32,000 nt of DNA from an uncultured archaeon (lineage in GTDB: Archaea; Asgardarchaeota; Jordiarchaeia; Jordiarchaeales; Jordiarchaeaceae), in NCBI GenBank assembly GCA_964510585.1, contig CAZECW010000060.1, positions 37,721 to 69,720 on the forward strand, given 5' to 3'. Both the position numbers and the translations under genes were made by a program. The notes under the pieces were generated by a model, which ran no database searches, had not been told where the DNA came from, and saw nothing but the letters and a program-made list of their open reading frames with translations. This document shows, in pieces, positions 6,144 to 29,810 of this stretch (its first letter is position 1; each line of letters opens with the position of its first letter).

Positions 6144-6154
6144 CTACAAACACC

Positions 6155-7567: not shown

Positions 7568-7680
7568 TGTAATACCCTCTTGTGGGGAATAATTAGCGTA
7601 GAAAATTCTTTGCCCCTTTTAATTTTTTTCCCAATTTTATAATTAAAGTTCGCTTGTTTTATGATTATAACCAGTTTCGA

Positions 7681-7718
7681 CATTTATTTCGAATATTTAG
7701 CTTAAAATTCGAAATATG
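7681..7718. promoter_or_regulatory. Imperfect palindrome in a divergent promoter region (candidate operator)
   Basis: CATTTATTTCGAATATTTAGCTTAAAATTCGAAATATG has ATTTCGAAT / ATTCGAAAT inverted arms and sits between the divergent oxidoreductase and ALDH genes. Confidence 0.4.
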
Positions 7719-7848
7719 TTGAACTAATCTCTGCAAATAACGATAATTTTTAATAAGCGCAAAACAGTTGAAACAGACCACTTTATGCTCAAAAAATATC
7801 ATCAATTATTCAAAAATACCTCTTGAGAGTGTTAGGAGCTGATAAGCG

Positions 7849-9366
7849 GTGACTATAGTAAACACCTCCAAAGATAAAATATTCGTTAAGGACAAATATT
7901 CAGGTGAAGTTATAGGTGAGTTGCCTGCGGACAACATGGATATTCTAAGAGAGAAAATCAAGAAAGTTTACAAACTTGAGGAAAAGATGCGAAATACCAC
8001 TTTAGATGAGAGAATAGAGTTTATTAGAAGAGTTTCAAGAAGGATACGGTTGAAAAGACAAAAAATAAAGGAAACAATTGCAAGAGAAGGAGGACTCCCA
8101 ATAAAATATGCCGATTGGGAAGTAGGTATGATATCTCAGGGCTACCTACACGCCGATTGGCGTGGAGAAATGATTGAGGAAAGAAAGATCCAAGCAATAC
8201 GTGGAGAAAGCAGGGCCGCTTTTCACCCCTTAGGAACTTGCGGCTCAATGACTCCCAGAAACACCCCCTTCAGCCTTACCGGATGGGCAATAGGTGCCGC
8301 TTGGTTGACGGGTAATTCCCATGTTTTGAAGCCCTCAAGTGCGGTGCCACTCTCACCATTAATGCTCCTTGATCTTGCCCGGGATGTTGCGGATGACTTT
8401 CCAATCGAAGCTACCGAGATAACCGTTATGCCTGGTGATGAGGCAGCTACAGAATTTGTATCTAATCCTATGGTCAGCATATTCCTATTTTTCGGTAGTA
8501 GCCATGTCGGGAAACAGCTACTTATTGATTATGCAGAGTATCTTAAGAGCTGCACGCGTGCCCTGCCGTTTGCCGCGGGCTTTATGAATCAGGGCAAGTT
8601 CAAAAAATTCATTTTTGAAATGGCGGGAAACGATGCGGGAATAATTTTTGAGGATGTGGACATCGATAAAGCCGCCAACTTTGTAGTCAAAGCTGCACTC
8701 ACAAATAGCGGTCAGCAATGCTTTAGCATGAAGAGGATACTAGTCCAAGACAGTATTTTCGACGATTTCCTAGATGCGATGGTAAATTATACTTCAAAAC
8801 TGAAAATGGGTAACCCACTAGACCCTACAGTAGACATTGGACCTCTAGGTTCGGAGAAAATAATGCTCATGATTGATTTTATGGTGAAGGATGCCCTAAA
8901 CAAGGGAGGCAAGCTTTTAATTGGAGGCGAACGCCAAGACCCCTTCTATCTACCTACAATAATAAAATTTGACAAAGAGCAGGTCATGGATCCCGACGAA
9001 AACAAGAGACCCTTCATGTGGGTTGAAGAAGCCTTCGGTCCCGCAAGAAGCGTTGTGCCCTTCCATAACGAGGAAGAAGCAGTGATGCTTGCTAATAGTA
9101 CCACTTATGGTATGCGCGCTTCAATTTACTCTGAGGATCTAGACAAAGCAAACAGAGTTGCCCGAAAACTAGAAACCGCAGGGGTCTTCATAAACACAAC
9201 ACCAGGACAAGTAGACATATCATTCAAAATGGGCGGTGTTAAGGATTCGGGATTCCCACCAGGAGCACGCGACATAGTAAATCACATGGTGAGAGAACAA
9301 TTCATACATATTGAGGACGCCTTCCACGAAAAAGAAAAAGTGAAGGAGGAAGAAGAGGAGGAGTAA
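7849..9366 (+). CDS. NAD(P)-dependent aldehyde dehydrogenase
   Basis: PRNTP (Asn), LKPSS, FFGSSHVG, FEMAGND (catalytic Glu), SGQQCFS (catalytic Cys), EEAFGP. GTG start; acidic C-terminal tail. Confidence 0.92.
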   Translation: MTIVNTSKDKIFVKDKYSGEVIGELPADNMDILREKIKKVYKLEEKMRNTTLDERIEFIRRVSRRIRLKRQKIKETIAREGGLPIKYADWEVGMISQGYLHADWRGEMIEERKIQAIRGESRAAFHPLGTCGSMTPRNTPFSLTGWAIGAAWLTGNSHVLKPSSAVPLSPLMLLDLARDVADDFPIEATEITVMPGDEAATEFVSNPMVSIFLFFGSSHVGKQLLIDYAEYLKSCTRALPFAAGFMNQGKFKKFIFEMAGNDAGIIFEDVDIDKAANFVVKAALTNSGQQCFSMKRILVQDSIFDDFLDAMVNYTSKLKMGNPLDPTVDIGPLGSEKIMLMIDFMVKDALNKGGKLLIGGERQDPFYLPTIIKFDKEQVMDPDENKRPFMWVEEAFGPARSVVPFHNEEEAVMLANSTTYGMRASIYSEDLDKANRVARKLETAGVFINTTPGQVDISFKMGGVKDSGFPPGARDIVNHMVREQFIHIEDAFHEKEKVKEEEEEE

Positions 9367-13696: not shown

Positions 13697-14743
13697 ATGA
13701 TTAAAACCAAATTAACCGAAATGCTTGGAATAAAATATCCCATAATACAGGCTGGAATGGGGCCCCATAACACTACAAATCTTGCGGCTGCCGTGGCAAA
13801 TGCGGGTGGACTGGGACTTATATCTAGCATCGGGATGGGTTACTTGGCTTTTATGGATAAGCCCCTTTTTGGATTTACCGAAAAAACTCCTAGAGAACAG
13901 ATGCTTCGCTCAATTGAAACTGTAAAAAACATGACCAAAAAAACTGGGGGTATATTCGGAATAAATGTGCCTGTGGCAGTCGAGTTTCAATCCATTTCGA
14001 AAGAACTCATAGAAGCAGGGCTTGAAGCTAGGGAAACCGATGAGGAAGTTAGAAGAAGAATGAAGGTCGTAGTAACCTCTGCAGGGAATCCAGAACCCTT
14101 TGTAGAGAGTATAAAAGAATCGGGAGCTTACCATTTTCATGTATGCCCCTCACCCTACCATGCGAAAAAAGTTGAAGGATTTGGCACCGATGTGGTAATA
14201 GCCTCTGGCCATGAGGGTGGCGGTCACGTCGCACATGAACCAGTACATACAATGGTTCTACTTCCAGAAGTTGTAAAGACTGTCAAAATCCCTGTAGTTG
14301 CAGCGGGAGGCATTTGTGATGGAGCAACACTTGCAGCTGCTTTGGCTCTGGGTGCAGTAGGTGTTCAGATGGGTACGCGTTTTATTGCAACCAAGGAGAG
14401 TGATTTCCATCAACCCTACAAGGATTATGTTGTGAATATTAAGGATGTTAGGGACACCGTTTTGGCTAAGGGTCTCTTTGGGAAAATTAGGTACATGAAG
14501 AATCCCGCCGCATTAAGACTTTTGCAGGCGGAGCAAAGGGGCGCATCAGAAACAGAGCTTTTCAATCTTGAAATGGTGGGATTCGCAGCTATTGATAAAG
14601 GGGACATAGAGAACTCAGCTATGGCGGGGGGTGAAGTAGCAGGTAGAATTTCAGATATCCCTACAGTGAGGGAACTTATGGAGCGAATTGTTAATGAAGC
14701 AGAAGATATCATTAGAAACAGGTTACCAAAATTAATCGTCTAG
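13697..14743 (+). CDS. FMN-dependent nitronate monooxygenase/FabK-family flavoprotein (paralog 1)
   Basis: LTEMLGIKYPIIQAGMG, ANAGGLG, FGIN, GHEGGGH, VAAGGICDG, GAVGVQMGTRF, GEVAGRI. Confidence 0.88.
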   Translation: MIKTKLTEMLGIKYPIIQAGMGPHNTTNLAAAVANAGGLGLISSIGMGYLAFMDKPLFGFTEKTPREQMLRSIETVKNMTKKTGGIFGINVPVAVEFQSISKELIEAGLEARETDEEVRRRMKVVVTSAGNPEPFVESIKESGAYHFHVCPSPYHAKKVEGFGTDVVIASGHEGGGHVAHEPVHTMVLLPEVVKTVKIPVVAAGGICDGATLAAALALGAVGVQMGTRFIATKESDFHQPYKDYVVNIKDVRDTVLAKGLFGKIRYMKNPAALRLLQAEQRGASETELFNLEMVGFAAIDKGDIENSAMAGGEVAGRISDIPTVRELMERIVNEAEDIIRNRLPKLIV

Positions 14744-14945: not shown

Positions 14946-15800
14946 TTAGCTTTTTATATGTAGTATTTTTCTGGCTTCTTTGGGTGTTGCAATTTCTCTT
15001 CCTATGTCCTCGGCCATTCTTACGACTTTCTCTACAAATTGGGCATTGCTTTTTGCGAGTTCACCCTTTGAGATGTATATGCTGTCCTCCATGCCCACGC
15101 GTACGTGTCCTCCTAGTACTATGGTAACTGCGGCTATGGGGAATGCGTATCTCCCCATTCCCGCCGCCTGCCAAGTGGAGTTTGGGGGGATGCTCTCCAC
15201 TAGGTGTATTAGATTTTTGGGTGTGGGGAGAATGCATTGACCTGGAATTCCCATTACGAAGTTAAAGTGTAGGGGTTCTTTGAGTGCCCCAATTTCTTTT
15301 AGGAGCATGACGTTGTTTATGAAGCCAGTGTCGTAGATTTCGAGTTCAGGTTTTGTTCCGTTTTCAAGCATTGTTCGGGATATGTACTCTAACTCGGAAT
15401 AGTTTTGTTTTAAGACGAAGTCTCTTATCCATTTTCGTTCTTCAAAATCGTATCTTCCTGTTAGTCCTGCGCCCACGCTGAATGATGCTAATTCGGGTTT
15501 GAAGGTGGGTATTAGTTCCAGTCTCTTCTCTAAGGGTATTGTTGCCGCACCGCCAGTGGAAACGCATATGATGGCATCGCACTTCTGTCTTATTCCTTCA
15601 ATTATTTTTCCGAAAATCTTTACATCTGTGGTGGGTCTATTTTGTTCGTCTCTGGCATGAACATGTATAATTGAGGCGCCTGCCTCCCAGCATTCATAGG
15701 CCTGTTTAATTATTTCCTCCGGCTTCTCGGGAAGATTAGGGTTATCGGCTTTGGTGTGAAAGTTTCCAGTTAAGGCTACACATATTATTAGCTTCTCCAT
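14946..15800 (-). CDS. Beta-keto acid cleavage enzyme (BKACE/DUF849, Kce family)
   Basis: ALTG, GASIIHVHARD (2 His), STGG, PELASF, ELEIYDTG, HVRVGMED. ATG at 15800 preferred over the TTG at 15806. Confidence 0.9.
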   Translation of the reverse strand: MEKLIICVALTGNFHTKADNPNLPEKPEEIIKQAYECWEAGASIIHVHARDEQNRPTTDVKIFGKIIEGIRQKCDAIICVSTGGAATIPLEKRLELIPTFKPELASFSVGAGLTGRYDFEERKWIRDFVLKQNYSELEYISRTMLENGTKPELEIYDTGFINNVMLLKEIGALKEPLHFNFVMGIPGQCILPTPKNLIHLVESIPPNSTWQAAGMGRYAFPIAAVTIVLGGHVRVGMEDSIYISKGELAKSNAQFVEKVVRMAEDIGREIATPKEARKILHIKS

Positions 15801-15822
15801 CTTCAACCGCCCATTTTTTGTG

Positions 15823-16629
15823 CTATTTTGCTTTAAAGTCTGGTTTGCGTTTCTCTATAAAGGCTCTTATTCCTTCCTTTGCATCTTCGCTTTGCCTTAG
15901 GGGTTCTGCTAAGTACTGTTCCAAGAGGAGACCTTCTCTTAAGGGCATTTCCATACCTCGGAGAACCGCCTTCTTTATTGCCCTAACGGCTAGTGGGCCC
16001 TTCTCACATATTTCTTGGGCGGTTTCCATTGCGGTGGGCATTAGTTTTGGGAGGGGCACTACTTTGTTGACAAGGCCTATTTGGAGCGCTTCTTGCGCGT
16101 TTATTCTTTTCGCCATCATCATCATTTCAAGGGCTTTGGCTATACCTATTATTCTGGGTAATCTTTGCGTTCCACCGGCTCCGGGTATTATTCCTAATTG
16201 TGCCTCTGTTAGGCCGAAAACCGCGTTTTCTGAAGCTATTCTGATGTCGCAGGCGAGTGCTATCTCCATTCCTCCAGCCAAACAATAACCATTTATTGCA
16301 GCAATTATGGGTTTCCATATCTCGAGGTTTCTTGTTATTCCTCCAAGTCCTGGTTCCTTTTCTGCAATTTCCAAGCGTTCAGCTGAACTGAACTTGGAAT
16401 AGAATTCTCCAATTTTTCTCACATCAGCCCCAGCGCAGAAGGACTTGTCTCCTGCTCCAGTTATTATTGCCACCCAAAGATTTGGATCGTCTCTGAAATC
16501 TATCCACGCTTTGTTTAGCTCTACGATAGCGTCTGGGTCTAGTGCGTTTCGAACTTCAGGGCGATTTATGGTTATTATGGCTATCCTATCCTTCTTTTCG
16601 TAAATTATACTCATGTTAAACACATCCAT
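15823..16629 (-). CDS. Enoyl-CoA hydratase (crotonase) with both catalytic Glu
   Basis: FCAGADV, GGMEIALACD and GLTEAQLGIIPGAGGTQRL. The true start may be the ATG at 16614. Confidence 0.93.
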   Translation of the reverse strand: MDVFNMSIIYEKKDRIAIITINRPEVRNALDPDAIVELNKAWIDFRDDPNLWVAIITGAGDKSFCAGADVRKIGEFYSKFSSAERLEIAEKEPGLGGITRNLEIWKPIIAAINGYCLAGGMEIALACDIRIASENAVFGLTEAQLGIIPGAGGTQRLPRIIGIAKALEMMMMAKRINAQEALQIGLVNKVVPLPKLMPTAMETAQEICEKGPLAVRAIKKAVLRGMEMPLREGLLLEQYLAEPLRQSEDAKEGIRAFIEKRKPDFKAK

Positions 16630-16631
16630 CT

Positions 16632-17093
16632 TTAAATTGGCTTAAAATAATCAATGTCCAGAATATTTCCCTCTCGCTGATCCTTGAATACTGCTTGCAC
16701 ACGCATACCGGGTTTAATCTTATCTAGGTCCACTTCTCCAAGGATGTGAACAATATTGGTGTCCGCTCCATCAAGTTTAATGATGCCGTAGGCCAACGGT
16801 GGCTTCTTGGGCAGGTTGGGGCTGGAGCGATAAGTAACAGTGTAGGCAATCAAAGTGCCCTTGTCTCCAACCTCTACCCATTCATTGGTCTCCGCCATAC
16901 ACTTCCCACAATATCTACGTGGAGGTACCAGAATTTGGCCGCATTTGGGACACTTAACTCCCATAATTCTCTTGTTATCCCTAAGCTCTATGAAGAACTT
17001 GCTAGCAACGCGCCCCACACTATAGCTGAAGGGCAAAACAATCCTTGTAGGTAGTATGACAGCGTCTTCCTTCTCACTCATTTTTAGTCTCAC
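16632..17093 (-). CDS. DUF35 Zn-ribbon/OB-fold acyl-CoA-binding protein
   Basis: CPKCG...PPRRYCGKC Zn ribbon, GTLIAYT, IKLDGADT, GMRVQAVF, GNILDIDYF. GTG overlaps the upstream stop (GTGA); alternative ATG at 17081. Confidence 0.9.
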   Translation of the reverse strand: MRLKMSEKEDAVILPTRIVLPFSYSVGRVASKFFIELRDNKRIMGVKCPKCGQILVPPRRYCGKCMAETNEWVEVGDKGTLIAYTVTYRSSPNLPKKPPLAYGIIKLDGADTNIVHILGEVDLDKIKPGMRVQAVFKDQREGNILDIDYFKPI

Positions 17094-17584
17094 TCCTCAA
17101 TTGTTCTAAAGAAAATAATGTCCGTGATGTTTCCTTCAAGTTCTTCTCTCCAAACGGCTTGAACCCTCATTCCGATTCTCATCTTGCTTAAATCATTCTC
17201 TTCCAGAAAGTAGTTGATTGTAGTATCTGCGCCGTCCAGTTGAATGAGAGCCATCCCGTAAGGCACTGGCCTAGGCTTCCCAGTTCTAGGGTCTACGAAT
17301 GGCTGATAAACTACAGTGTAGGCTTTAACCGTCCCCTTATCGCTAATCTCAGACCACCCATCTATCTTCTTGTAACATTCGCCACAGATGAGGCGGGGGG
17401 GCAGATAAACCCGGCCGCAACTTGAACATTTGGCACCTAAAATCTTTCTCTCCTCTTTCCAAGCTCTATAAAATTTAGTATAGTAACTACCTCCAGACCA
17501 GCGGTACTCAAGATTCATATTTATGGAAACCCTAAGAAGATCCTTCTCTTCTTTTACTTCTTCCTTACCTTCACCCTTAGACAT
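17090..17584 (-). CDS. DUF35 Zn-ribbon/OB-fold acyl-CoA-binding protein
   Basis: CSSCG...PPRLICGEC, GTVKAYT, IQLDGADT, GMRVQAVW, GNITDIIFF. Confidence 0.9.
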   Translation of the reverse strand: MSKGEGKEEVKEEKDLLRVSINMNLEYRWSGGSYYTKFYRAWKEERKILGAKCSSCGRVYLPPRLICGECYKKIDGWSEISDKGTVKAYTVVYQPFVDPRTGKPRPVPYGMALIQLDGADTTINYFLEENDLSKMRIGMRVQAVWREELEGNITDIIFFRTIEE

Positions 17585-17596
17585 ATTTTTTGCCTC

Positions 17597-18754
17597 CTAT
17601 AAATGGCTTGATAAAACCATCATATCACACCAAGTGTAAACACCGTATCCGTGAACTAGGACTGTTTCAACATCAGGCACCTGCCTCTTACCACCCTTTC
17701 CATGAATCTGCAACGCTCCCTCCGCAGCCCTGATAACTCCTGAAGCACCCACAGGATTTGTGGATAGAACTCCCCCGGAAGGGTTTACGGGGAGCTCACC
17801 GTCCATTGAGGTAACGCCCTCATCCACTAGTTTGCCAGCTTCCCCTTCCTTACAGAATCCCATAGCTTCGTACCATGCCATCTCAGCATAAGAAACTGGC
17901 TCGTATATCTCAGCAACGTCGAATTGTTTCAGAGGGTTAGTTATGCCTAACTTTTTATAGATTATATTGCAGCACTCGCGGATGGTTCTTATGGTGGCCA
18001 ATCTGTTTATGTGATCCCCTAAATAGGGGGTATCGTGTCTGGTAACCGCAGCTTTAACCCAAGCGGGGTTTTCACAAAGTTCTTTTGCCTTCTTCTCGGA
18101 AGCATAAATAATTGCGCAGGCGCCGTCGGACTGTGGACACATATCAAACAAATGAATGGGATAAGCTATGTACCTTGAGTTCAAAACTTTTTCAACGGTT
18201 AAATCGGGAATGTGAAGGTGGGCATAGGGATTGTTCAAAGCGTTCTTCCTAGCTTTAACAGCAACTTTGGCAGCTTGCTCCTGTGTAACTCCCCTAGAAG
18301 CCATATATTCTGTTATGGAAAGTGCGAAGTTTCCAGGCGCAGCGGAGGCCACTGGTCTATCCCAGAAGGGATCGGCAAGAGCCATACCGGCAAATGTGTG
18401 GCCGTCAGAGTGTTTTTCGAATCCCACAACCATCACAATATCAAAGAGCCCCGATGCAGTAGTGTAATATCCGGCTATGGCTGCAGAGGAGCCTGAAGTG
18501 CCCCCAGTAGCAATCTTTAACTGGTGTTTCAGGTAGGCGCCAGCCCCTTCCGCAACCCACATGTCTGGAAGAGCTCTACCCTCAAATAGCTCCATATTAT
18601 CTGTTATCACCGCATCTATATCCTTTATCTCTAATTGAGCATCTTCTAGGGCTCTACTTGCAGCTTCGAATACCATTTCTGCTTGATTAGCATCATTCCT
18701 TTTACTTACATGCTTGGTTTGGCCCGTTCCAATAATGGCTACATTTCTCTTCAT
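17597..18754 (-). CDS. Thiolase-fold (SCP-x type) protein lacking catalytic Cys, Ltp3-like putative aldolase subunit
   Basis: IIGTGQT, DMCPQSDGACA, DVAEIYEP, PVNPSGGVLSTNPVGASG, RQVP. The nucleophile position reads ATGGTSG (no Cys) and GHP is replaced by TNP. Confidence 0.88.
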   Translation of the reverse strand: MKRNVAIIGTGQTKHVSKRNDANQAEMVFEAASRALEDAQLEIKDIDAVITDNMELFEGRALPDMWVAEGAGAYLKHQLKIATGGTSGSSAAIAGYYTTASGLFDIVMVVGFEKHSDGHTFAGMALADPFWDRPVASAAPGNFALSITEYMASRGVTQEQAAKVAVKARKNALNNPYAHLHIPDLTVEKVLNSRYIAYPIHLFDMCPQSDGACAIIYASEKKAKELCENPAWVKAAVTRHDTPYLGDHINRLATIRTIRECCNIIYKKLGITNPLKQFDVAEIYEPVSYAEMAWYEAMGFCKEGEAGKLVDEGVTSMDGELPVNPSGGVLSTNPVGASGVIRAAEGALQIHGKGGKRQVPDVETVLVHGYGVYTWCDMMVLSSHL

Positions 18755-18773
18755 TTAAGGGACACCTCCTCAA

Positions 18774-19931
18774 TCATCTGCCCACAATAACCACGCAGTG
18801 CATTTGCCCACAGGGACCGGTAGTCCCATGTGCCAGCGCTGTTTCTACTTCAGGCACTTGGCGTTTACCTGCTTCACCCCAGCACTGCTCTACAGTTTCA
18901 ACCAGTCTGGTTAAACCTGCCACGATGTAGGGGTTTCCTGCAAGCATACCGCCTGAGGTATTGACTGGTAGCTCTCCGTCCATTTCAGTTATTCCCTCAT
19001 CTATGAGCCTTCCGGCGTCACCTCTTTTACAGAAGTCCAGTCCCTCTAACCATAAAAGTTCCTGATAGGAGAAGGGTTCTGAAATTTCTGCAACGTCAAT
19101 CTCCTTCAAGGGCTTATTGATACCTGCAAGTTCATAGGCTCTCTTGGCAGCTATGGTTAATGCGGAACACTCGGTAAGGTCTCGGTCGCCGAGGTAGTGG
19201 GAGTCGTAGCAGTTGCCCATTCCCTTAATCCAGACTGGTTCTCTCCCCTTTTCCCTAGCTATTTCCTTAGCTCTCTTCTCCGATGCCAGAATCAAGGCAC
19301 ATGCACCATCCGAAACAGGAGCTGCTTCAAGGGATTTGATGGGGTAAGATAATATTTCTGATTGAAGAACGTCGTCCACACTTATGTTCATCGGTTGGTA
19401 GGCGTAGGGATTATTAAACGCGTTTCTATGATTTTTAACTGAAACCTTAGCAAAATGCTCCTCAGACAAGCCGTATTTATTCATGTACCAACTTGCCTGT
19501 AACCCTGCAGAAGAGAGATAATCTAACCCCAACATCTGCTGGTAAACAGGATCAAAAACCCAATTAGTAATATCGTAGTGAGTACCCCTGGAACCTAAAC
19601 AGTGGGCTACAACCATGACAACGTCAAAGTCGCCCGATAGAATATTTAAAGCTGCATGGAAGGCGGCCAGAATGCCGTCGTCGGCAACTCTGGTTTCTGA
19701 ACCCATAACGCCCCCAACCACTTCAGTGAGGAATGCGCCAGAAGCAGTGGCGCCGTCCCAGAGGTCTACAGAGGCGCTCACAGTGTTTTCGATGTCCTTT
19801 ATGTTTAGACCTGCATCCTCCAGAACCTTGGTTACAACCTCGTAAGCAACTTCGGGAATGGTTTTATTCAGCACTAAACCATATTTTGATTGTGCTGTCC
19901 CAACAATACCCACTTTTTCTGGTAGACCCAT
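18774..19931 (-). CDS. Thiolase-fold protein lacking catalytic Cys, Ltp4-like putative aldolase subunit
   Basis: VGIVGTAQ, APVSDGACA, DVAEISEPFSY, PVNTSGGMLAGNPY, AHGTTGPCGQ. The nucleophile position reads VADDG. ATG at 19931 has an AGGTG SD and is preferred over the ORF-track start at 20030. Confidence 0.87.
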   Translation of the reverse strand: MGLPEKVGIVGTAQSKYGLVLNKTIPEVAYEVVTKVLEDAGLNIKDIENTVSASVDLWDGATASGAFLTEVVGGVMGSETRVADDGILAAFHAALNILSGDFDVVMVVAHCLGSRGTHYDITNWVFDPVYQQMLGLDYLSSAGLQASWYMNKYGLSEEHFAKVSVKNHRNAFNNPYAYQPMNISVDDVLQSEILSYPIKSLEAAPVSDGACALILASEKRAKEIAREKGREPVWIKGMGNCYDSHYLGDRDLTECSALTIAAKRAYELAGINKPLKEIDVAEISEPFSYQELLWLEGLDFCKRGDAGRLIDEGITEMDGELPVNTSGGMLAGNPYIVAGLTRLVETVEQCWGEAGKRQVPEVETALAHGTTGPCGQMHCVVIVGR

Positions 19932-19965
19932 TCTTCTACACCTAGTAGTCACTTGTTTTGGGAAT

Positions 19966-20766
19966 TCATTTGTCCTTGAATTCCGCCTTTCTTTTTTCCA
20001 AAAAGGCGGCCATTCCTTCCCTTGTATCAAAAGTTGTGAAATTTATTAGAACAGTGTTTATGGAGTAGTCTATTGCTGTGTCTAGGTCGGTTGTCATCCA
20101 TTTGTGAATGATGTCCTTCTGTGTGGCGAACACCGTGTTGCTATACCTTGTAAGTGTGTCTACCCACCGCTGAACTTCTTTGTCCAGTTCTTCTGGTGGC
20201 ACCACTGCATTAACTAGTCCCCGCCGCTCTGCTTTTTCAGCATCCCAAAATTTTCCTGTAAGAGCCAGTTCTCTTGCGCCCATTATGCCAATAGCTTGAA
20301 CCAGAATTGCGGCTTCCACAATGGCTGGGATTCCAACCTTGATGTTGGGAAGGCCGAACTTGGAGCGGTTAGTGGCAATTATGAAGTCGCATGAAATTGC
20401 TAGTTCAAGTCCCGCCCCTAAACAGTAACCGTCAACAGCGCATATGATGGGTCTTTCACAGGTTCTACAGGCGAGAAAGGTTTTGTGTAATTGCTTGGGA
20501 ATCTCTCTTTGCTTCCAAACTTCGCTGGGAAGGCTTACAAAATCGATGTCTGTTCCGGCGCTGAAAGCCTTATCTGTGGTGGATTTGATGACTATTACCT
20601 TTACTTCATCATCTTTTTGAAACTCTTTCAGTGTTTCCTCTATTTCGACTAATAGGTCCATGTTGATGGCGTTCAATTTTTCGGGGCGATTCAGAAATAT
20701 TCTACCTACCGGAGGATCTTTTTGGGTGATTATTGTTTTGAGTTTTTTCTCTTCTTTTACTACCAA
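19966..20766 (-). CDS. Enoyl-CoA hydratase/isomerase-family protein (second Glu replaced by Asn)
   Basis: FSAGTDI, GAGLELAISCD, FGLPNIKVGIPAIVEA. TTG start with an AGGAGG SD. Confidence 0.9.
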   Translation of the reverse strand: MVVKEEKKLKTIITQKDPPVGRIFLNRPEKLNAINMDLLVEIEETLKEFQKDDEVKVIVIKSTTDKAFSAGTDIDFVSLPSEVWKQREIPKQLHKTFLACRTCERPIICAVDGYCLGAGLELAISCDFIIATNRSKFGLPNIKVGIPAIVEAAILVQAIGIMGARELALTGKFWDAEKAERRGLVNAVVPPEELDKEVQRWVDTLTRYSNTVFATQKDIIHKWMTTDLDTAIDYSINTVLINFTTFDTREGMAAFLEKRKAEFKDK

Positions 20767-20902
20767 CGAAATATGCCTCCTTCTAGAGTTAGTTTGTGTA
20801 AAATATACATTCTAATATACTCTTAACTTTGGAATTATATGTCCTATTGGATATTGGAGTTTTGTATCCTTGCAATTTTGCCATAAAAATCTTTTGTGAT
20901 TT

Positions 20903-22642
20903 TTATAGCACTCCGAGGAAGAATCGTTCAGGGTCAAAGATTCTCAAGAGGAATAATTCTTGTTCGGATGGCGGTTCAATTTTTTCAAGAGGGTCTGCTA
21001 ACTCAACCTTCCATCCAGTGTTCTGTATAATTTTTTGAATCATTTCACTCTCCGAAATTCCTCTTTGAGCATAGTATTTTTTCAGAACCATAATTCCGTG
21101 TTCTTTTTCGAAAACTGCATGTGAGGTTATGATTTTGCTAACCTTTTCCCCGGGACATGTTATGTAGGGCACCTTATCTACAAGACGCTCTTTGTTTTGC
21201 ACCATTATCACCATGGTCTCCCTAGCTCTAGCAACTATGTCGTTGGCGCCCCCACTGCCCACCAGTGTAACTCCATCAGTTCTTGTTGAGTTAATGTTTC
21301 CGTACTTGTCAACTTGTCCAGCAGACAGAATGGCCATAGACTTGGGATAGTTGACATTTATTCCAATAGAACCCACCAAATCGGTTATCATTTTGCATGT
21401 GGGTATGTTTGCCATAGTAAATATGAATGGGTCTGTTGGTTTTGGAAGATATCCAAACATGCCCCACTCCACGAGTAGATCTACCAGAATGTTCTCAGAT
21501 CTTAGTGTGTGGGTTGCCAGCCATGCAGCTAAGTTTGCCATGCCGATTCCTGCAAGGAGAATCTTGTAATCTTTACTTTTTATCGTTTTAACTAGTTCTC
21601 TGGAAGCTGTGACGATGGCTCTTTCCTCTTCGGTAAAATTATTGAAACTAGGCATATTACGTATAGTGTGGGGAAGCAGCTGCTTCCAGGAGTCGGGGTT
21701 ACCTCTCCCCCTAAGAATCATCAGTCTCTCGAAGCCTAGTTTGTTCAAGTAACCTTGAAAGTTTCCAACATCATAAATCCACTCTTTTATCCACTTTTGC
21801 ATAGTCTCCTCTTTTTTACTGGCATTATTTAATTCGATATTAAAGGGAATATCTTGGTAATAGCTTGAGCCGTCAGGAGCGTAGAAAGAGAAGGGGTGAG
21901 CTCCAAAAGGAGTCTCACAAACAGCTTTTACAAAGTGGCCGGGAATATCAACCATTGGAGCGTTTTTCCTAATGAAATCCGTTGAAACAATTTTCTCAAC
22001 TGTTACTATTGCCCCATTACGGCTAGCATAAGCGCCGTAAGCTCTTTCACTCATAGGTAACCCTATTATAGTGTTCCCATTTGGGTCGGCGCACCAAGCA
22101 TGGAGTATAGAGAAGTCGGGCTTCACAGCCTTGAGTAAACCCACTTTTTCCCCACTTCCAAAGGGATCATCAATGACAAGGAAGCTATCTTTTAACTCCT
22201 TCTCCATAGTTGAACCTATCATAGACTTTGTGGGTATAAACTTGACATCCAGAGCTCCCGCTAATAGTCTTAGAACTATGGAAAGCATTGACCAGTGCTC
22301 CACTTCCATGCCCTTATCAATAGCTCTCTGAAAGGCCCTTGAAGGAGAGGGGGCTGGAAAAACATTACCCATATAGCTTGCTATCAGCTTTTTTATTAGA
22401 TTCGATGCCGCGAGTATCTGAACTTGCAGGGCGCTTCCTAAACAAATTATTTCAAACTGCGGATTCTTGTCTCTGAACTGTCTACATATTTCGCTTATGG
22501 CACTAAATGAACTCCTATTAGTAGATATGTGTAAAAACATTTTAGGTCGTATGTATTTCTTTATTGCTTCTTCCAAGGGGAGAACTTTGCTCTCTCCTTC
22601 GTAGAGCTCTGTTTTGAAAATGTCTTCATACTCTTTAGACAA
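20903..22642 (-). CDS. Family I CoA-transferase, fused alpha+beta subunits (GctAB-like)
   Basis: Alpha half: LHAWCADPNGN, TVEKIV, PFGAHP. Beta half: AGIG, LLVEWG, SAGQVDKYGNINST, VGSGGANDI, VPYITCPG. Confidence 0.88.
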   Translation of the reverse strand: MSKEYEDIFKTELYEGESKVLPLEEAIKKYIRPKMFLHISTNRSSFSAISEICRQFRDKNPQFEIICLGSALQVQILAASNLIKKLIASYMGNVFPAPSPSRAFQRAIDKGMEVEHWSMLSIVLRLLAGALDVKFIPTKSMIGSTMEKELKDSFLVIDDPFGSGEKVGLLKAVKPDFSILHAWCADPNGNTIIGLPMSERAYGAYASRNGAIVTVEKIVSTDFIRKNAPMVDIPGHFVKAVCETPFGAHPFSFYAPDGSSYYQDIPFNIELNNASKKEETMQKWIKEWIYDVGNFQGYLNKLGFERLMILRGRGNPDSWKQLLPHTIRNMPSFNNFTEEERAIVTASRELVKTIKSKDYKILLAGIGMANLAAWLATHTLRSENILVDLLVEWGMFGYLPKPTDPFIFTMANIPTCKMITDLVGSIGINVNYPKSMAILSAGQVDKYGNINSTRTDGVTLVGSGGANDIVARARETMVIMVQNKERLVDKVPYITCPGEKVSKIITSHAVFEKEHGIMVLKKYYAQRGISESEMIQKIIQNTGWKVELADPLEKIEPPSEQELFLLRIFDPERFFLGVL

Positions 22643-22717
22643 GTTTAAACCCTCATATCCGATTTTATTTGTCTTAACGATTTCCTCATTTTATGGGAAC
22701 CGAGATTAAATGCATAC

Positions 22718-23764
22718 CTAGATTTGAATCACAATTCTAATGGGGTTTCCCACCTTTTTCTCCAATCTTTCCAGTCCCTCATTTACCTGTTCAAGTTTTA
22801 ACACCTGACTAATAGACCGTGAAAGATCAAGCTTCTTCATTTTAATTAACTCCAATATTCGGTCAATCTCCTCCTTGTTGCTGCCAAACGAGCCCATAAC
22901 CTGATCTTCGCAGTAAACGAATATGTAGGGTGAAACCAGTTCTATTTTTTCTGGCCCAATTCCCACAATGACCGCTCTTCCACCTTTTCGAATACTTTTA
23001 ACTGCTCGGTCTATGGTAGTCGCCATTCCCACGAATTCTAAAGCCAAGTCCACACCCTTGCCCCCTGTGATTTCGCTGATTCTTTTACCCGTTTTCTCCC
23101 TAGCAGAATTTATGGTGAAGTCAGCTCCCAGCATCTTGGACCTTTCAAGAATTTCATCAGAAACATCTATAGCAATAATTTTGGAGGCCCCAGCCAATTT
23201 AGCTATCTGTATTGCGTGAGAGCCTAAACCTCCACATCCAAAAATAGCTACGGTCTCACCTAACCTTAGGTTTCCACGGGTGATTATCGCGTGGTATGGA
23301 GTTGCGACAGCATCACCAATAATGGCGGCTTGTTCGAAGGGAACACCCTCTGGTATTTTTGTAAGACAATTTTTAGGTATTTTCAGGTAATCTGCCAAGC
23401 CACCATCTACGTGAAGACCCAGTATTTGAGCATTTACACAAAGCGCTTCGCGACCACTTCTACACGCGTAGCATGCGCCACACGTGATGGAGGAAATAAC
23501 TAGAACTTTATCTCCAATCTTCCATCCTTCCACCCCTTCTCCTATTTCCGCGATTTCTCCAGCTATCTCGTGTCCCAGAGTTATTGGTGTTTTTGCGGGG
23601 GGAATGGTGCCGTCGCGGGCTATGTGCACATCTGTGCCACAGATCCCACAGGCCTTAACTTTTATCAGCACCTCTCCCGCCCCAATTTTGGGAATAGGTA
23701 ATTTTTCGATAGTTAGGGGTTCGCCGGCTTTGTAGAATCTTGCGGCTCTCATAGTAGCTTCCAT
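22718..23764 (-). CDS. Zn-dependent alcohol dehydrogenase (MDR superfamily)
   Basis: CGICGTD, GHEIAG, structural Zn CGACYACRSGREALC, GCGGLG. Confidence 0.93.
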   Translation of the reverse strand: MEATMRAARFYKAGEPLTIEKLPIPKIGAGEVLIKVKACGICGTDVHIARDGTIPPAKTPITLGHEIAGEIAEIGEGVEGWKIGDKVLVISSITCGACYACRSGREALCVNAQILGLHVDGGLADYLKIPKNCLTKIPEGVPFEQAAIIGDAVATPYHAIITRGNLRLGETVAIFGCGGLGSHAIQIAKLAGASKIIAIDVSDEILERSKMLGADFTINSAREKTGKRISEITGGKGVDLALEFVGMATTIDRAVKSIRKGGRAVIVGIGPEKIELVSPYIFVYCEDQVMGSFGSNKEEIDRILELIKMKKLDLSRSISQVLKLEQVNEGLERLEKKVGNPIRIVIQI

Positions 23765-23789
23765 TAGTCACTAGCACTCCTATACTTTT

Positions 23790-24638
23790 TTAAAGCTTGA
23801 ACACCTTTATGGCATTATCTCTTAGGAGTTTTTTCTTTACTTCGTAGCTTAAACCTAGTTCGTCAATCTCTTTAAGGCATCTCTTGAAGTCTAGAAGGGG
23901 ATAATCAGTTCCCCAGAGGACTTTATCCTGCCCCCAGGTTGCCACGAACTGTTTGAATGATCCGGGCCAGAATTTGGGTGCACGAGCAGAGGTGTCTATA
24001 TAAACATTTGGAAATTTCCACGCTAAAATCATCATTTCCTCATGCCAAGGCTGACCAAGATGTCCGCCAATTATTTTCAGCTCAGGGAAAAACAAAGCAA
24101 CCTCATCCAAGTATATGGGTCGCGCACACTCTGATGGCAAAAGCGGTCCGGTGTGACCTATCTGGATGGTAACCGGTATGTCAAGCTCGACACATTTTGC
24201 ATAGATAGGATAATAGTATTTGTGATTTGGAGGCAAACCCACAATGCCGTCCGCATACTGGTAAGGCTCCAACTTGATGGCTTTGAAATGCAAGTCGTTC
24301 ACTATTCTCTCCACTTCTCTTACAGCCTTCATACCATCGCGTGGGTCAACCGTACCACAGCCTATGAATCGGTCCGGAAACTTGTCGCAGATTTTGGCAA
24401 CATCATCGTTGCTCACTCCAACTCCCTTGTATTGGAATGCGGAGGCAATCAGCTTATCTACTCCAGCTTCGTCCATCTCTTGGATTATTATTTCAGGATC
24501 TACGCCTTCCAAGATTTTGTGAGATGCCTTGTACCGGTCAAAAATATGGGTGAACTCAGGCGGCCAGGTGCCTTTTATCTTACCAACACCAGCCCAAACA
24601 TCAATAGCTCCTATCCTAGAAGACAAATCTATCACCAC
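23790..24638 (-). CDS. Amidohydrolase_2-family protein (paralog 1)
   Basis: IDVW, EMDEAGV, PDRFIG, QIGHTGP, FPELKIIGGHLG, NVYIDTSA, KVLWGTDYP, NAIKVFKL. Confidence 0.9.
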   Translation of the reverse strand: MVIDLSSRIGAIDVWAGVGKIKGTWPPEFTHIFDRYKASHKILEGVDPEIIIQEMDEAGVDKLIASAFQYKGVGVSNDDVAKICDKFPDRFIGCGTVDPRDGMKAVREVERIVNDLHFKAIKLEPYQYADGIVGLPPNHKYYYPIYAKCVELDIPVTIQIGHTGPLLPSECARPIYLDEVALFFPELKIIGGHLGQPWHEEMMILAWKFPNVYIDTSARAPKFWPGSFKQFVATWGQDKVLWGTDYPLLDFKRCLKEIDELGLSYEVKKKLLRDNAIKVFKL

Positions 24639-26965: not shown

Positions 26966-27805
26966 TTATAATTTGAAGACTTTGATTGCGTTCTCTCTCA
27001 GAATTTTTCTTTTAGCTTGTTCGCTCAGTCCTAGAGCTTCAATTTCTTCGATGCATCTCTTAAAGGTTAGAAGAGGATAGTCAGTACCCCAGAGCACTTT
27101 GTCCTGTCCCCAGGTTGCCGCAAAAAGCTTGAATGAGTCCGGCCAATACTTTGGAGCTCGAGCAGAGGTGTCCACGTACACATTGGGGAACTTCCATGCA
27201 AGTATCATCATTTCCTCGTGCCAAGGTTGTCCAAGATGTCCACCTATTATTCTCAGTTCTGGGAAGAACAGGGCAACCTCATCTAGGTAAATTGGCCTAG
27301 CGCATTCTGAGGGCAAAAGTGGACCTGTGTGGCCTATTTGGATGGTGACGGGTATGTCAAGCTCGACACATTTTGCATATATCGGATAGTAGTATTTATG
27401 GTTGGGAGGAAGGCCCACAATTTCATCACCATAAGCGTAGGGTTCAAGTTTGATGGCTTTAAAATGTAGGTCGTTTACTATTCTTTCCACTTCTCTAACA
27501 GCCTTCATACCGTCACGCGGATCTACGGTTCCACAGCCGATGAATCTGTCTGGAAACTTATCGCAGACTTTCGCTATGTAATCATTATCTACTCTCATTT
27601 CTTTGTAAACGAATGCGGATAATATCACCTTCTCTACTCCGGCTTCATCCATTTCCTGAATCATTTCTTCGGGTGTGAATCCTTTGTACATTTTTTCTGG
27701 GGTTTTATATCTCTGGAAAATGTGTAAAAACTGAGGGGGCCAATTTTTTGTTTGCTCTGGAGGCAAAACACCCGCCCAGCAATCTATTGCACCTATTTTA
27801 CTCAT
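26966..27805 (-). CDS. Amidohydrolase_2-family protein (paralog 2)
   Basis: IDCW plus the same core motifs as 23790-24638. The core is nearly identical to paralog 1 by manual alignment. Confidence 0.9.
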   Translation of the reverse strand: MSKIGAIDCWAGVLPPEQTKNWPPQFLHIFQRYKTPEKMYKGFTPEEMIQEMDEAGVEKVILSAFVYKEMRVDNDYIAKVCDKFPDRFIGCGTVDPRDGMKAVREVERIVNDLHFKAIKLEPYAYGDEIVGLPPNHKYYYPIYAKCVELDIPVTIQIGHTGPLLPSECARPIYLDEVALFFPELRIIGGHLGQPWHEEMMILAWKFPNVYVDTSARAPKYWPDSFKLFAATWGQDKVLWGTDYPLLTFKRCIEEIEALGLSEQAKRKILRENAIKVFKL

Positions 27806-28763: not shown

Positions 28764-29810
28764 TTATACGACCAATTTTGGTAATTTGGTCTTTATAATT
28801 TCTTCTGCCTCTTTCACGATTGTCTCGATTAATTCCTTTACTGTAGGAATATCTTTTATTCTGCCAGCAACTTCGCCTCCTGGCATCGCTGAATTTTCAA
28901 TATCGCCAGCATCTATAGCCTCTAATGATTTAATCTCAAATTTAACTTGCTCTTCCTCCGATGCACCAGACTTGGCTAATTCGAGCATCTTCAAAACTGC
29001 TGGGTTTTTAAGATACCTAAGATTCCCAAATAACCCCTTAGCAACCACAGTATCTCTGACATCATTAATATCTCTCACAAAATTCTTGTAGCTGGGCAAA
29101 AAGTCGCTTTCTTTAGTTGCAATGAATCTTGTGCCCATTTGGATTCCCACCGCGCCTAGAGCTAACGCTGCAGCCAGAGTGGCTCCGTCACAAAAACCAC
29201 CAGCACCCACAACTGGAATCTTAACGGAGCGAACAACCTCAGGCAGCAAAACCAGAGTGTGAACTGGATCGTAGGCTACGTGTCCACCCCCCTCATGTCC
29301 TGAGGCGATTACTAGGTCTGTACCCATCTTTTCAACCTTTTTAGCATGGTAGGGGGATGGTACCACATGAAAATGGTAAGCTCCCGATTCTTTTATACTC
29401 TCCACGTAGGGTTCAGGGTTACCCGCAGATGTGATAATTACTTTAAGCCTCTTTGCAACCTCCGAATCTGTCTCTCTAGCTTCTAGGGCTGCGTTAATTA
29501 GTTCGCCGGCTACTGATTGGAACTCCACGGCTACTGGCACATTGATTCCAAAAATTCCCCGGGAACTCTTAGTTAGCTCTTTAACCTTCTGTATTGAGGA
29601 GAGCATTTGTTCTCGGGGAGTGAGATTTTCAAAACCGAAAAGAGGCTTAAACCCGAGAGCCACGACTCCCATACCTATACTGGATATGATTCCTAATCCA
29701 CCGGCGTTTGCAACAGCGGCTGATAGTTTCATTGTGTTGTAGGGACCCATACCTGCCTGTATTATGGGATGTTTTATTCCAAGCATTTCGGTTAATTTGG
29801 TCTTTATCAT
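28764..29810 (-). CDS. FMN-dependent nitronate monooxygenase/FabK-family flavoprotein (paralog 2)
   Basis: 348 aa and co-linear without indels with 13697-14743. GHEGGGH and GIQMGTRF motifs. GGAGG SD. Confidence 0.88.
   Translation of the reverse strand: MIKTKLTEMLGIKHPIIQAGMGPYNTMKLSAAVANAGGLGIISSIGMGVVALGFKPLFGFENLTPREQMLSSIQKVKELTKSSRGIFGINVPVAVEFQSVAGELINAALEARETDSEVAKRLKVIITSAGNPEPYVESIKESGAYHFHVVPSPYHAKKVEKMGTDLVIASGHEGGGHVAYDPVHTLVLLPEVVRSVKIPVVGAGGFCDGATLAAALALGAVGIQMGTRFIATKESDFLPSYKNFVRDINDVRDTVVAKGLFGNLRYLKNPAVLKMLELAKSGASEEEQVKFEIKSLEAIDAGDIENSAMPGGEVAGRIKDIPTVKELIETIVKEAEEIIKTKLPKLVV

Follow-up and report, generated by a model that had tools for sequence, protein, structure and literature searches.

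A four-gene module of cysteine-less thiolase-fold and DUF35 proteins as a candidate heteromeric retro-aldolase in an Asgard archaeon

A 32,000-nucleotide stretch of DNA from a Jordarchaeia genome (hereafter the window; C60:37721–69720 of a 3.78-Mb assembly in 217 contigs) carries four consecutive minus-strand genes for two thiolase-fold proteins, ThlB (18774–19931) and ThlA (17597–18754), and two small DUF35 proteins, DUF35a (17090–17584) and DUF35b (16632–17081). We propose that this module encodes a heteromeric, cysteine-independent carbon–carbon lyase (retro-aldolase) in which ThlA would be the catalytic subunit, ThlB its partner and the DUF35 proteins the adaptors, a reading to which we give slightly better than even odds (probability about 0.55). 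Such a lyase would probably act on carbon chains that ordinary beta-oxidation is unable to cleave. Evidence for the retro-aldolase includes the invariance of ThlA Tyr284 at the position of the base proven in the aldolases Ltp2 and Sal, the clustering of ThlA and ThlB with the actinobacterial proteins Ltp3 and Ltp4, an aldol-lyase by genetics, and a gene for an EchA19-like hydratase 2 nt downstream of the module, as in DUF35-coupled aldolases. The heteromeric composition is suggested by the co-occurrence of the four genes in the same order across phyla and by the existence of tandem DUF35 fusions.

Proteins of this kind carry acetyl-CoA acetyltransferase or thiolase annotations and enter under those names into inferences about the lipid and fatty-acid potential of Asgard archaea. 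If the proposal is correct, the Ltp3/Ltp4 type, known from actinobacterial sterol genetics alone, would be a large and ancient heteromeric enzyme family with its own catalytic solution, which anaerobes would use on unassigned, probably branched or alicyclic, acids.

Catalytic residues of the thiolase-fold proteins

ThlA and ThlB (385 aa each) both match the Pfam domains Thiolase_N and Thiolase_C_1 with scores over the gathering thresholds. We mapped their residues with pairwise HMMER alignments to solved thiolases (including PDB 6esq and 7yvy) and an alignment to the canonical paralogues in the same genome. Where the M. thermolithotrophicus thiolase has its nucleophilic Cys, ThlA has Gly85 (ATGGTSG), and in ThlB this Cys falls within a three-residue deletion (VA-DDG). 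The HDCF position reads YEPV in ThlA and SEPF in ThlB, and the GHP position reads TNP in ThlA, with Asn333 opposite the His, and GNP in ThlB. The canonical SCP-x thiolases of the genome retain the Cys, HDCF and GHP; thus, the residue losses are specific. With the nucleophilic Cys, HDCF and the GHP His all replaced, both proteins are predicted to be incapable of the thiolase reaction. The alignments thereby bear out a preliminary description of the window, which had noted the missing Cys and the NP in place of the GHP His and concluded that neither protein is a thiolase; the motifs that it quoted (DVAEIY and DVAEIS, GGMLAGNPY, LDGADT and GNI.DI..F) were all found.

We evaluated residue conservation in 49 A-type (ThlA-like) and 49 B-type (ThlB-like) proteins from 46 modules plus actinobacterial references. 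Gly85, Tyr284 and Asn333 are invariant in the A type (49/49), whose other conserved positions include Cys206 (48/49), His179 (46/49) and Pro286 (46/49). Ltp3 has all six of these residues. In the B type, Asp85 of the shortened nucleophile loop is invariant, and the residue at the Tyr284 position varies (Ser in 32 proteins, Tyr in 9, His in 4 and others in the remainder). ThlB itself has Ser there, in agreement with the earlier suggestion of asymmetric subunits. The Tyr in the GNPY motif of ThlB, which had been proposed as the second catalytic Tyr, is kept in only 6 of the 49 homologues, which lends this proposal no support.

The thiolase-fold aldolases known to date are all coupled via DUF35 to the hydratase that precedes them in the pathway (PMC12329534), and two of them provide a catalytic reference. 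TcLtp2 uses Tyr294 (YDHF) as the base and Tyr344 as the acid, and CtSal uses Tyr302 and Cys304 (YDCY) and has Gly in place of the nucleophile and Gln where TcLtp2 has Tyr344 (PMC12329534). For comparison with Ltp2 we used an orthologue from Nocardia farcinica (711 bits on PRK07855), encoded downstream of chsH2/chsH1-like genes. ThlA Tyr284 aligns with Tyr302 in the YDHF motif of this protein, the YDHF His corresponds to Pro286 of ThlA, and the second Tyr, located 50 residues past the first at the GHP-His position, aligns with Asn333 in both ThlA and ThlB. The two-tyrosine mechanism invoked in the preliminary description is therefore not conserved, the site of the second Tyr being an invariant Asn in ThlA. 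The two window proteins score 173 and 136 bits on PRK07855 (cut-off 469). The Pro286 position is never Cys among the 49 A-type proteins, so the type also lacks the YDC(Y) Cys304 of Sal; ThlA reads Y-E-P.

By alignment, Tyr284 is thus the predicted counterpart of the proven aldolase base. Furthermore, ThlA and Ltp3 would represent a third configuration, in which the base Tyr is kept, an amide occupies the His position as in Sal, and neither known acid is matched. The likeness to the steroid C3 side-chain aldolase Ltp2-ChsH2(DUF35) (PDB 6ok1) extends to the SCP2-thiolase fold without a nucleophilic Cys, the base Tyr at the HDCF-His position, the DUF35 partner and the coupled hydratase. However, Ltp2 is a homodimer of a separate lineage, has its DUF35 fused to the hydratase and carries the second Tyr and the YDHF His where ThlA has Asn and Pro. 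The bile-acid C5 side-chain aldolase Sal-Shy(DUF35) (PDB 9myr) shares with ThlA the Gly at the nucleophile position, the Tyr base and the amide (Gln) at the GHP-His position, and the zinc finger of its DUF35 shapes the cleft (PMC12329534). Unlike ThlA, Sal uses the essential acid Cys304, for which Y-E-P offers no counterpart, forms a homodimer and has its DUF35 partner fused to a MaoC hydratase.

The conservation of Tyr284, together with the better conservation of ThlA (69–73% identity to Desulfobacterales orthologues vs 51–55% for ThlB), points to ThlA as the catalytic subunit. ThlB may be a pocket-shaping partner or a subunit with an Asp-based role of its own. If the aldolase reading holds, Tyr284 would be a handle for telling which subunit of the Ltp3/Ltp4 type is catalytic. 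A structure model of ThlA (mean predicted local distance difference test score of 66, below 50 in the active-site loops) matched SCP2-type chains in Foldseek with template modelling scores of 0.7–0.78, as expected of the SCP2-thiolase fold.

Two other kinds of cysteine variant were seen. In three A-type paralogues elsewhere in the genome (C38:12917–14086, C193:23317–24510 and C12:6645–7814), the motif is ATCGTTG, which puts a Cys immediately ahead of the nucleophile position; the remaining A-clade proteins have Gly at that site. The Sulfolobus tokodaii protein ST0096 (PDB 4yzo) is thiolase-like and lacks the nucleophilic Cys (SGSGGS) but has an HD motif and GHP, and represents a Cys-less archaeal type that differs from ThlA and ThlB.

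Relationship to Ltp3-Ltp4 and distribution of the module

The best NCBIfam match of ThlA is PRK08313 (Ltp3), at 393 bits (cut-off 514), and ThlB scores 178 bits on PRK07937 (Ltp4; cut-off 419). As Ltp3 and Ltp4 references we used a Tsukamurella record that contains kstR, mce4, hsaEFG-type genes, a P450 and fadA5. In this locus, the gene for a 309-aa tandem-DUF35 protein is followed by those for a PRK07937 protein (593 bits, Ltp4 type) and a PRK08313 protein (734 bits, Ltp3 type), in the neighbourhood of an EchA19 equivalog, an AMP-ligase and, beside echA19, an NMO-family gene. In a maximum-likelihood tree, ThlA grouped with Ltp3 (support 100/97) and ThlB with Ltp4 (96/98; 97/97 in a second tree). 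This placement favours the labels Ltp3-like and Ltp4-like that the two proteins had been given from their sequences. Both groups together formed a clade (100/99) apart from the canonical thiolases of the genome. The Nocardia Ltp2 orthologue fell outside this clade (97/95), and its forced union with the A clade cost 11.7 log-likelihood units (approximately unbiased test, p 0.037). An affiliation with the archaeal mevalonate thiolase or with BbsB, the outcome against which the preliminary description had set its labels, was not recovered: the genome's own canonical thiolases form a clade apart, and the two proteins score 143 and 107 bits on the BbsB model, far below its cut-off of 750 (BbsA, 27 vs 250).

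The nearest known system is therefore the Ltp3-Ltp4 pair with its tandem DUF35 protein (Rv3523, Rv3522 and Rv3521 type), which neighbours EchA19 and FadD19 in actinobacterial sterol catabolism. Ltp3 is needed for the cleavage of C24-branched sterol side chains and is encoded within the KstR sterol cluster. A role as heteromeric aldol-lyase is assigned to Ltp3-Ltp4 from genetics in two papers that both cite Wilbrink 2012 (PMC6678751; PMC6593523). The literature that we found on Ltp3/Ltp4 (Rv3521–3523) consists of gene knockouts, with no assay, structure or characterization. ThlA shares with Ltp3 the Gly at the nucleophile position and the motifs Y-x-P, S-x-N-P, NPxAHL and xCP, and ThlB shares with Ltp4 the Asp at the shortened loop. 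Both systems also have two DUF35 units per pair and an EchA19-like crotonase, an AMP-ligase and an NMO-family flavoprotein nearby.

Sequence comparison nonetheless sets the window module apart from Ltp3-Ltp4 in host domain, adaptors, gene order, pathway context and sequence. Identities are only ~40% for the A type and ~30% for the B type, below the NCBIfam cut-offs. The DUF35 proteins of the window are encoded by separate genes, and the order is B-A-a-b instead of (a+b)-B-A. The window comes from an anaerobic Asgard archaeon of hot springs and holds no sterol genes, and its cluster attaches to the module a beta-keto-acid cleavage enzyme (BKACE), an amidohydrolase_2 protein, a Zn-dependent alcohol dehydrogenase (Zn-ADH) and a glutaconate-type CoA-transferase.

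Other thiolase-fold complexes with DUF35 proteins were also compared. Archaeal true thiolases with a DUF35 adaptor gave the best PDB matches in sequence and fold and have the adaptor and the archaeal setting in common with the window module. Yet, they have the Cys/His/Cys set, a single thiolase type and a single DUF35 protein, and the canonical copies in this genome belong to a different clade. The benzoylsuccinyl-CoA thiolase BbsAB (PDB 7pxp) and the acyltransferase PhlABC (PDB 5m3k) also combine a thiolase-fold protein with a DUF35 subunit, and PhlABC has, like the window module, two different thiolase-superfamily subunits. However, both BbsB and PhlC retain the catalytic Cys and His, and BbsB has the Cys, HD and GHP.

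The two small proteins have zf-ChsH2 and OB_ChsH2_C domains above the Pfam gathering scores and would thus serve as zinc-ribbon/OB-fold adaptors. DUF35a (164 aa, a-type) has invariant cysteines at positions 53, 56, 67 and 70, and DUF35b (b-type) likewise has four invariant zinc-ribbon cysteines. A GTGA overlap between the two genes, described earlier, is present in the sequence, but it presupposes a GTG start for DUF35b at 17093 (153 aa). Orthologues align from Met5 of that reading frame, which corresponds to ATG 17081, 12 nt downstream of the GTG, and a GGAG motif lies 11 nt upstream of this ATG. A start at ATG 17081 (149 aa) is, for both reasons, more likely.

In a DUF35 tree, the module proteins formed a single clade (99/98) separate from the DUF35 proteins that adjoin canonical thiolases, with a well-supported a-type clade (100/99) and a basal b-type. 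Tandem DUF35 fusions are found in the sterol loci of actinobacteria and, here and there, in close relatives of DUF35b, which is 53% identical to the C-terminal half of one of them (P0121). The two genes of the window match, as proposed, the tandem-DUF35 protein encoded beside ltp4 and ltp3. The polarity implied by calling them a split form of Rv3521 is probably reversed. Separate genes are the common state and fusions are sporadic, which suggests that the Rv3521-like fusion was probably derived from two separate genes; the actinobacterial tandem halves are long branches in the tree. A complex prediction for ThlA and ThlB with DUF35a as the partner scored the same as a control in which ThlA was replaced.

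Relatives of ThlA are numerous (>4000 at E<1e-20), and metagenome-assembled genomes (MAGs) of Thermodesulfobacteriota, Chloroflexota, Acidobacteriota and Methylomirabilia encode proteins with 65–73% identity. The order ThlB-ThlA-DUF35a-DUF35b was found, among 78 fetched loci, in Jordarchaeia, Bathyarchaeia, Promethearchaeota, Hod- and Odinarchaeota, Methanolliviera and Desulfobacterales, and the order b-B-A-a in Actinomycetota MAGs and some paralogues. The recurrence of the gene order in dozens of loci and several phyla places the four-gene pattern far from chance. From their phylogenies, the A/B and a/b lineages each appear to be ancient and paired. In two Promethearchaeota loci (L034:10187–11188 and L056:8076–9077), the open reading frame (ORF) of the ThlA orthologue begins ~60 codons later than those of its neighbours, which might reflect a frameshift, an error in the assembly or an interruption of the gene.

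The genome contains at least six modules of two Cys-less thiolase-fold and two DUF35 genes. In addition to the window copy on contig C60, they are located at C139:19000–22288, C28:24938–28263, C38:12428–15747, C27:35952–39347 and C87:5419–8948. Their genes are arranged in three ways (B-A-a-b, b-B-A-a and a third, basal type), and the modules coexist with about nine canonical thiolase/DUF35 sets. Judging by their residues, about half of the ketothiolase/DUF35 sets of this genome are predicted to be unable to act as thiolases.

Proposed mechanism and alternative chemistries

In the proposed retro-aldolase, ThlA and ThlB would form a pseudo-symmetric thiolase-fold heterodimer with one zinc-ribbon/OB DUF35 protein capping each protomer. 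This A-B-a-b assembly would equal the alpha2-beta2 arrangement of Ltp2-ChsH2(DUF35) and Sal-Shy(DUF35). The adjacent EchA19-like hydratase (15823–16629, minus strand; Pfam crotonase, best NCBIfam match EchA19 at 263 bits, cut-off 400) would make the 3-hydroxyacyl-CoA substrate. ThlA Tyr284 would take the proton from its beta-hydroxyl, with backbone hydrogen bonds given by Gly85 and the NPSGG loop, and the break between the alpha and beta carbons would yield acetyl- or propionyl-CoA and an aldehyde, ketone or beta-keto acid. The faster-evolving ThlB would shape the pocket or, alternatively, contribute its own chemistry via Asp85. The carbonyl product would probably be handed to the neighbouring BKACE (14946–15806, minus strand). 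More speculatively, Cys206, His179 or water could donate the proton, the BKACE could convert a beta-keto acid product and acetyl-CoA to an acyl-CoA and acetoacetate, and the glutaconate-type CoA-transferase would suit a dicarboxylic, 3-alkylglutaconate-like substrate. The sequence data establish the gene anatomy, the loss of the thiolase residues, the clades, the conservation patterns and the recurrent gene neighbourhood, and from these we infer the aldolase chemistry, the active subunit, the quaternary structure, the substrate and the BKACE link.

Several observations weigh against the retro-aldolase. Neither proven aldolase has its catalytic acid matched in ThlA: Cys304 of Sal and His296 of Ltp2 are replaced by Pro286 and Tyr344 of Ltp2 by Asn333. 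ThlB is strongly constrained (invariant Asp85, NPSGG retained) and is perhaps no passive partner. The ThlA model has low confidence precisely in the active-site loops, and Foldseek ranks thiolases and aldolases alike. The searchable literature held no assay or structure of any enzyme of the Ltp3/Ltp4 clade, whose aldolase label comes from genetics and analogy. Finally, the predicted functions in the cluster include no sterol genes and do not assign a substrate.

The missing acid also favours a different carbon–carbon cleavage. One form would be the hydrolytic retro-Claisen cleavage of a 3-oxoacyl-CoA, with water in place of Cys and CoA and an oxo group introduced by the Zn-ADH; another would be the decarboxylation of a carboxylated acyl-CoA, as occurs weakly in TbSLP. 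In support, Pfam and NCBIfam annotation of the cluster proteins identified the Zn-ADH but no canonical thiolase and no 3-hydroxyacyl-CoA dehydrogenase (HADH), and the invariant Asp85 at the nucleophile loop of ThlB could activate water. Furthermore, TbSLP, which has a YDCF motif, slowly decarboxylates malonyl-CoA, but the authors of that study themselves suspect that it is an aldolase (PMC12329534). Against this chemistry, the one invariant residue shared with characterized relatives is the Tyr that acts as aldolase base, the coupling of the hydratase is direct as in aldolase systems, and hydrolysis would waste the thioester. We consider such chemistries unlikely.

Somewhat less probable still is an aldolase that works mainly in the condensing direction, joining a carbonyl compound and acetyl-CoA to a 3-hydroxyacyl-CoA for archaeal lipid or fatty-acid-like biosynthesis, by analogy with the thiolase/DUF35 complexes of the mevalonate pathway and archaeal fatty-acid synthesis. 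The neighbouring genes (CoA ligase, CoA-transferase, crotonases and BKACE, and in the bacterial clusters acyl-CoA dehydrogenases, a regulator and a solute-binding protein) argue for catabolism, and the nearest genetically studied relatives work in degradation. Still, a retro-aldol reaction is reversible, the DUF35-mediated thiolase complexes of M. thermolithotrophicus and S. acidocaldarius work towards condensation, and many thiolase/DUF35 pairs have been reported in Asgard genomes (bioRxiv 10.1101/2024.07.05.601840).

ThlA and ThlB could also be catalytically dead scaffolds that, with the DUF35 proteins, organize or regulate the neighbouring hydratases and BKACE. This would account for the loss of all canonical catalytic residues and has precedents in DUF35 proteins that act as staples in several complexes and in inactive thiolase-superfamily partners such as PhlA (PMC2954200). 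However, ThlA identities of 65–73% across archaea and several bacterial phyla and invariant polar active-site residues (Y284, N333, C206 and H179) would be unusual for a pure scaffold, and ltp3 and ltp4 are each reported to be essential for a specific cleavage step, which makes this role improbable. A genuine thiolase with an unusual nucleophile, or with a residue contributed in trans, has the least chance, for the three genome paralogues with a displaced Cys and the Cys206 and Cys213 retained in ThlA are outweighed by a Gly-Gly, invariant or nearly so, at the nucleophile and neighbouring positions of the window ThlA and by the additional loss of the acid/base Cys and oxyanion His in both subunits.

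Gene cluster, pathway context and horizontal transfer

The module is part of a nearly gapless minus-strand run of ten genes (24638 to 14946) in the order amidohydrolase_2, Zn-ADH, CoA-transferase, crotonase, ThlB, ThlA, DUF35a, DUF35b, crotonase and BKACE. The four core genes are separated by spacers of 19, 12 and 8 nt, the last being a 4-nt overlap if DUF35b starts at GTG. The start of ThlB was set at ATG 19931, but the reading frame stays open to a TTG at 20030. The EchA19-like crotonase begins 2 nt after the DUF35b stop and is kept beside the module, with 65% identity, in loci of the window type. The BKACE, last in the run, scores 322 bits on Pfam and 307 bits on the NCBIfam Kce-like model (cut-off 382). 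It lies within 10 kb of the module in 3 of 3 window-type, 16 of 17 Asgard-type and 2 of 6 other loci with enough flanking sequence. If the proposed lyase is real, this constant partner would point to new pathway logic. We found no literature that characterizes a BKACE combined with DUF35. A search for longer proteins (>502 aa, which a ~430-aa fusion would escape) revealed no BKACE-DUF35 fusion. All the BKACE ORFs adjoining modules in the fetched loci encode proteins of 261–345 aa, which shows that this lineage has no such fusion.

Upstream of ThlB, a second crotonase (19966–20766, minus; Pfam and NCBIfam) is kept in the bacterial counterpart clusters. It is preceded by a fused alpha-beta CoA-transferase of the glutaconate CoA-transferase type (20903–22642, minus; 579 aa; Pfam), whose best PDB matches are chains A and B of 1poi. 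Among solved structures it is nearest to glutaconate CoA-transferase, the AibA/B-type family and IpdAB, and its gene was seen, among the fetched loci, only in the Jordarchaeia copies of the cluster. The Zn-dependent medium-chain alcohol dehydrogenase (22718–23764, minus; Pfam and NCBIfam) shares 50–56% identity with its bacterial counterparts. The run begins with an amidohydrolase_2 gene (23790–24638, minus; Pfam), and a paralogue is located at 26966–27805 (minus); neither has an NCBIfam match. The nearest solved structures are the uncharacterized BB4693 (3irs) and LigW/LigJ-type enzymes, including LigW-type decarboxylases. The first copy is predicted to belong to the pathway because ~60% identity is kept in the bacterial clusters.

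Bordering the run are genes for an NMO/FabK-like flavoprotein and an acyl-CoA ligase, and beyond them lie the second amidohydrolase_2 gene, two further crotonases and a second NMO-like gene. The two flavoproteins (13697–14743, plus, and 28764–29810, minus; 348 aa each) score ~220 bits on the FabK model, below its cut-off. Pfam and NCBIfam annotation of the window revealed no sterol-catabolic genes.

Near-identical loci were found in Candidatus Jordarchaeia/Freyarchaeota MAGs (99% identity) and Ca. Jordarchaeum madagascariense (94%), which assigns the host to the Asgard archaea by sequence, and the window DNA turns up repeatedly in hot-spring metagenomes from several studies. The whole cluster (14946–24638) is 50–72% identical to loci in Desulfobacterales MAGs (L001/L018, L016, L017 and L012). 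These bacterial counterparts have nearly the full set of genes (ThlB, ThlA, two DUF35, crotonases, amidohydrolase_2, BKACE and Zn-ADH), with acyl-CoA dehydrogenases where the archaeon has NMO/FabK-like flavoproteins, plus a transcription regulator and a solute-binding protein. The window copy, Jordarchaeum and one Bathyarchaeia sequence are nested, in a phylogeny of ThlA, inside an otherwise bacterial clade (support 100), whereas the C139 paralogue falls within an Asgard-wide clade. This suggests that the window cluster was acquired horizontally, between domains.

A bolder and tentative extension, which we find conceivable but do not favour, is that the complex and the BKACE are central to an as yet undescribed route around blocked beta-oxidation, one that would need no oxygen and be widespread in anaerobic bacteria and Asgard archaea. 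The hydratase would make a 3-hydroxy(-3-alkyl)acyl-CoA, and a heteromeric aldolase with a new Tyr/Asn catalytic set, lacking Cys, His and a second Tyr, would cleave it to acetyl-CoA and a carbonyl compound or beta-keto acid. The BKACE would use acetyl-CoA to re-activate this product, with no need for ATP, a thiolase or an HADH, and the whole pathway would have been exchanged between Desulfobacterota-like bacteria and archaea.

Two minor features of the window complete the inventory. A gene pair for an FAD-oxidase and a CCG/Fe-S subunit is divergent from the gene of a 505-aa aldehyde dehydrogenase (window 4521–9366, ~7 kb off the cluster). An aldehyde dehydrogenase would be needed if the lyase product were an aldehyde, and its connection to the cluster is hypothetical. 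Antisense ORFs within genes (16746–17054, 18212–18496 and 15818–16288) overlap strongly conserved coding sequence.

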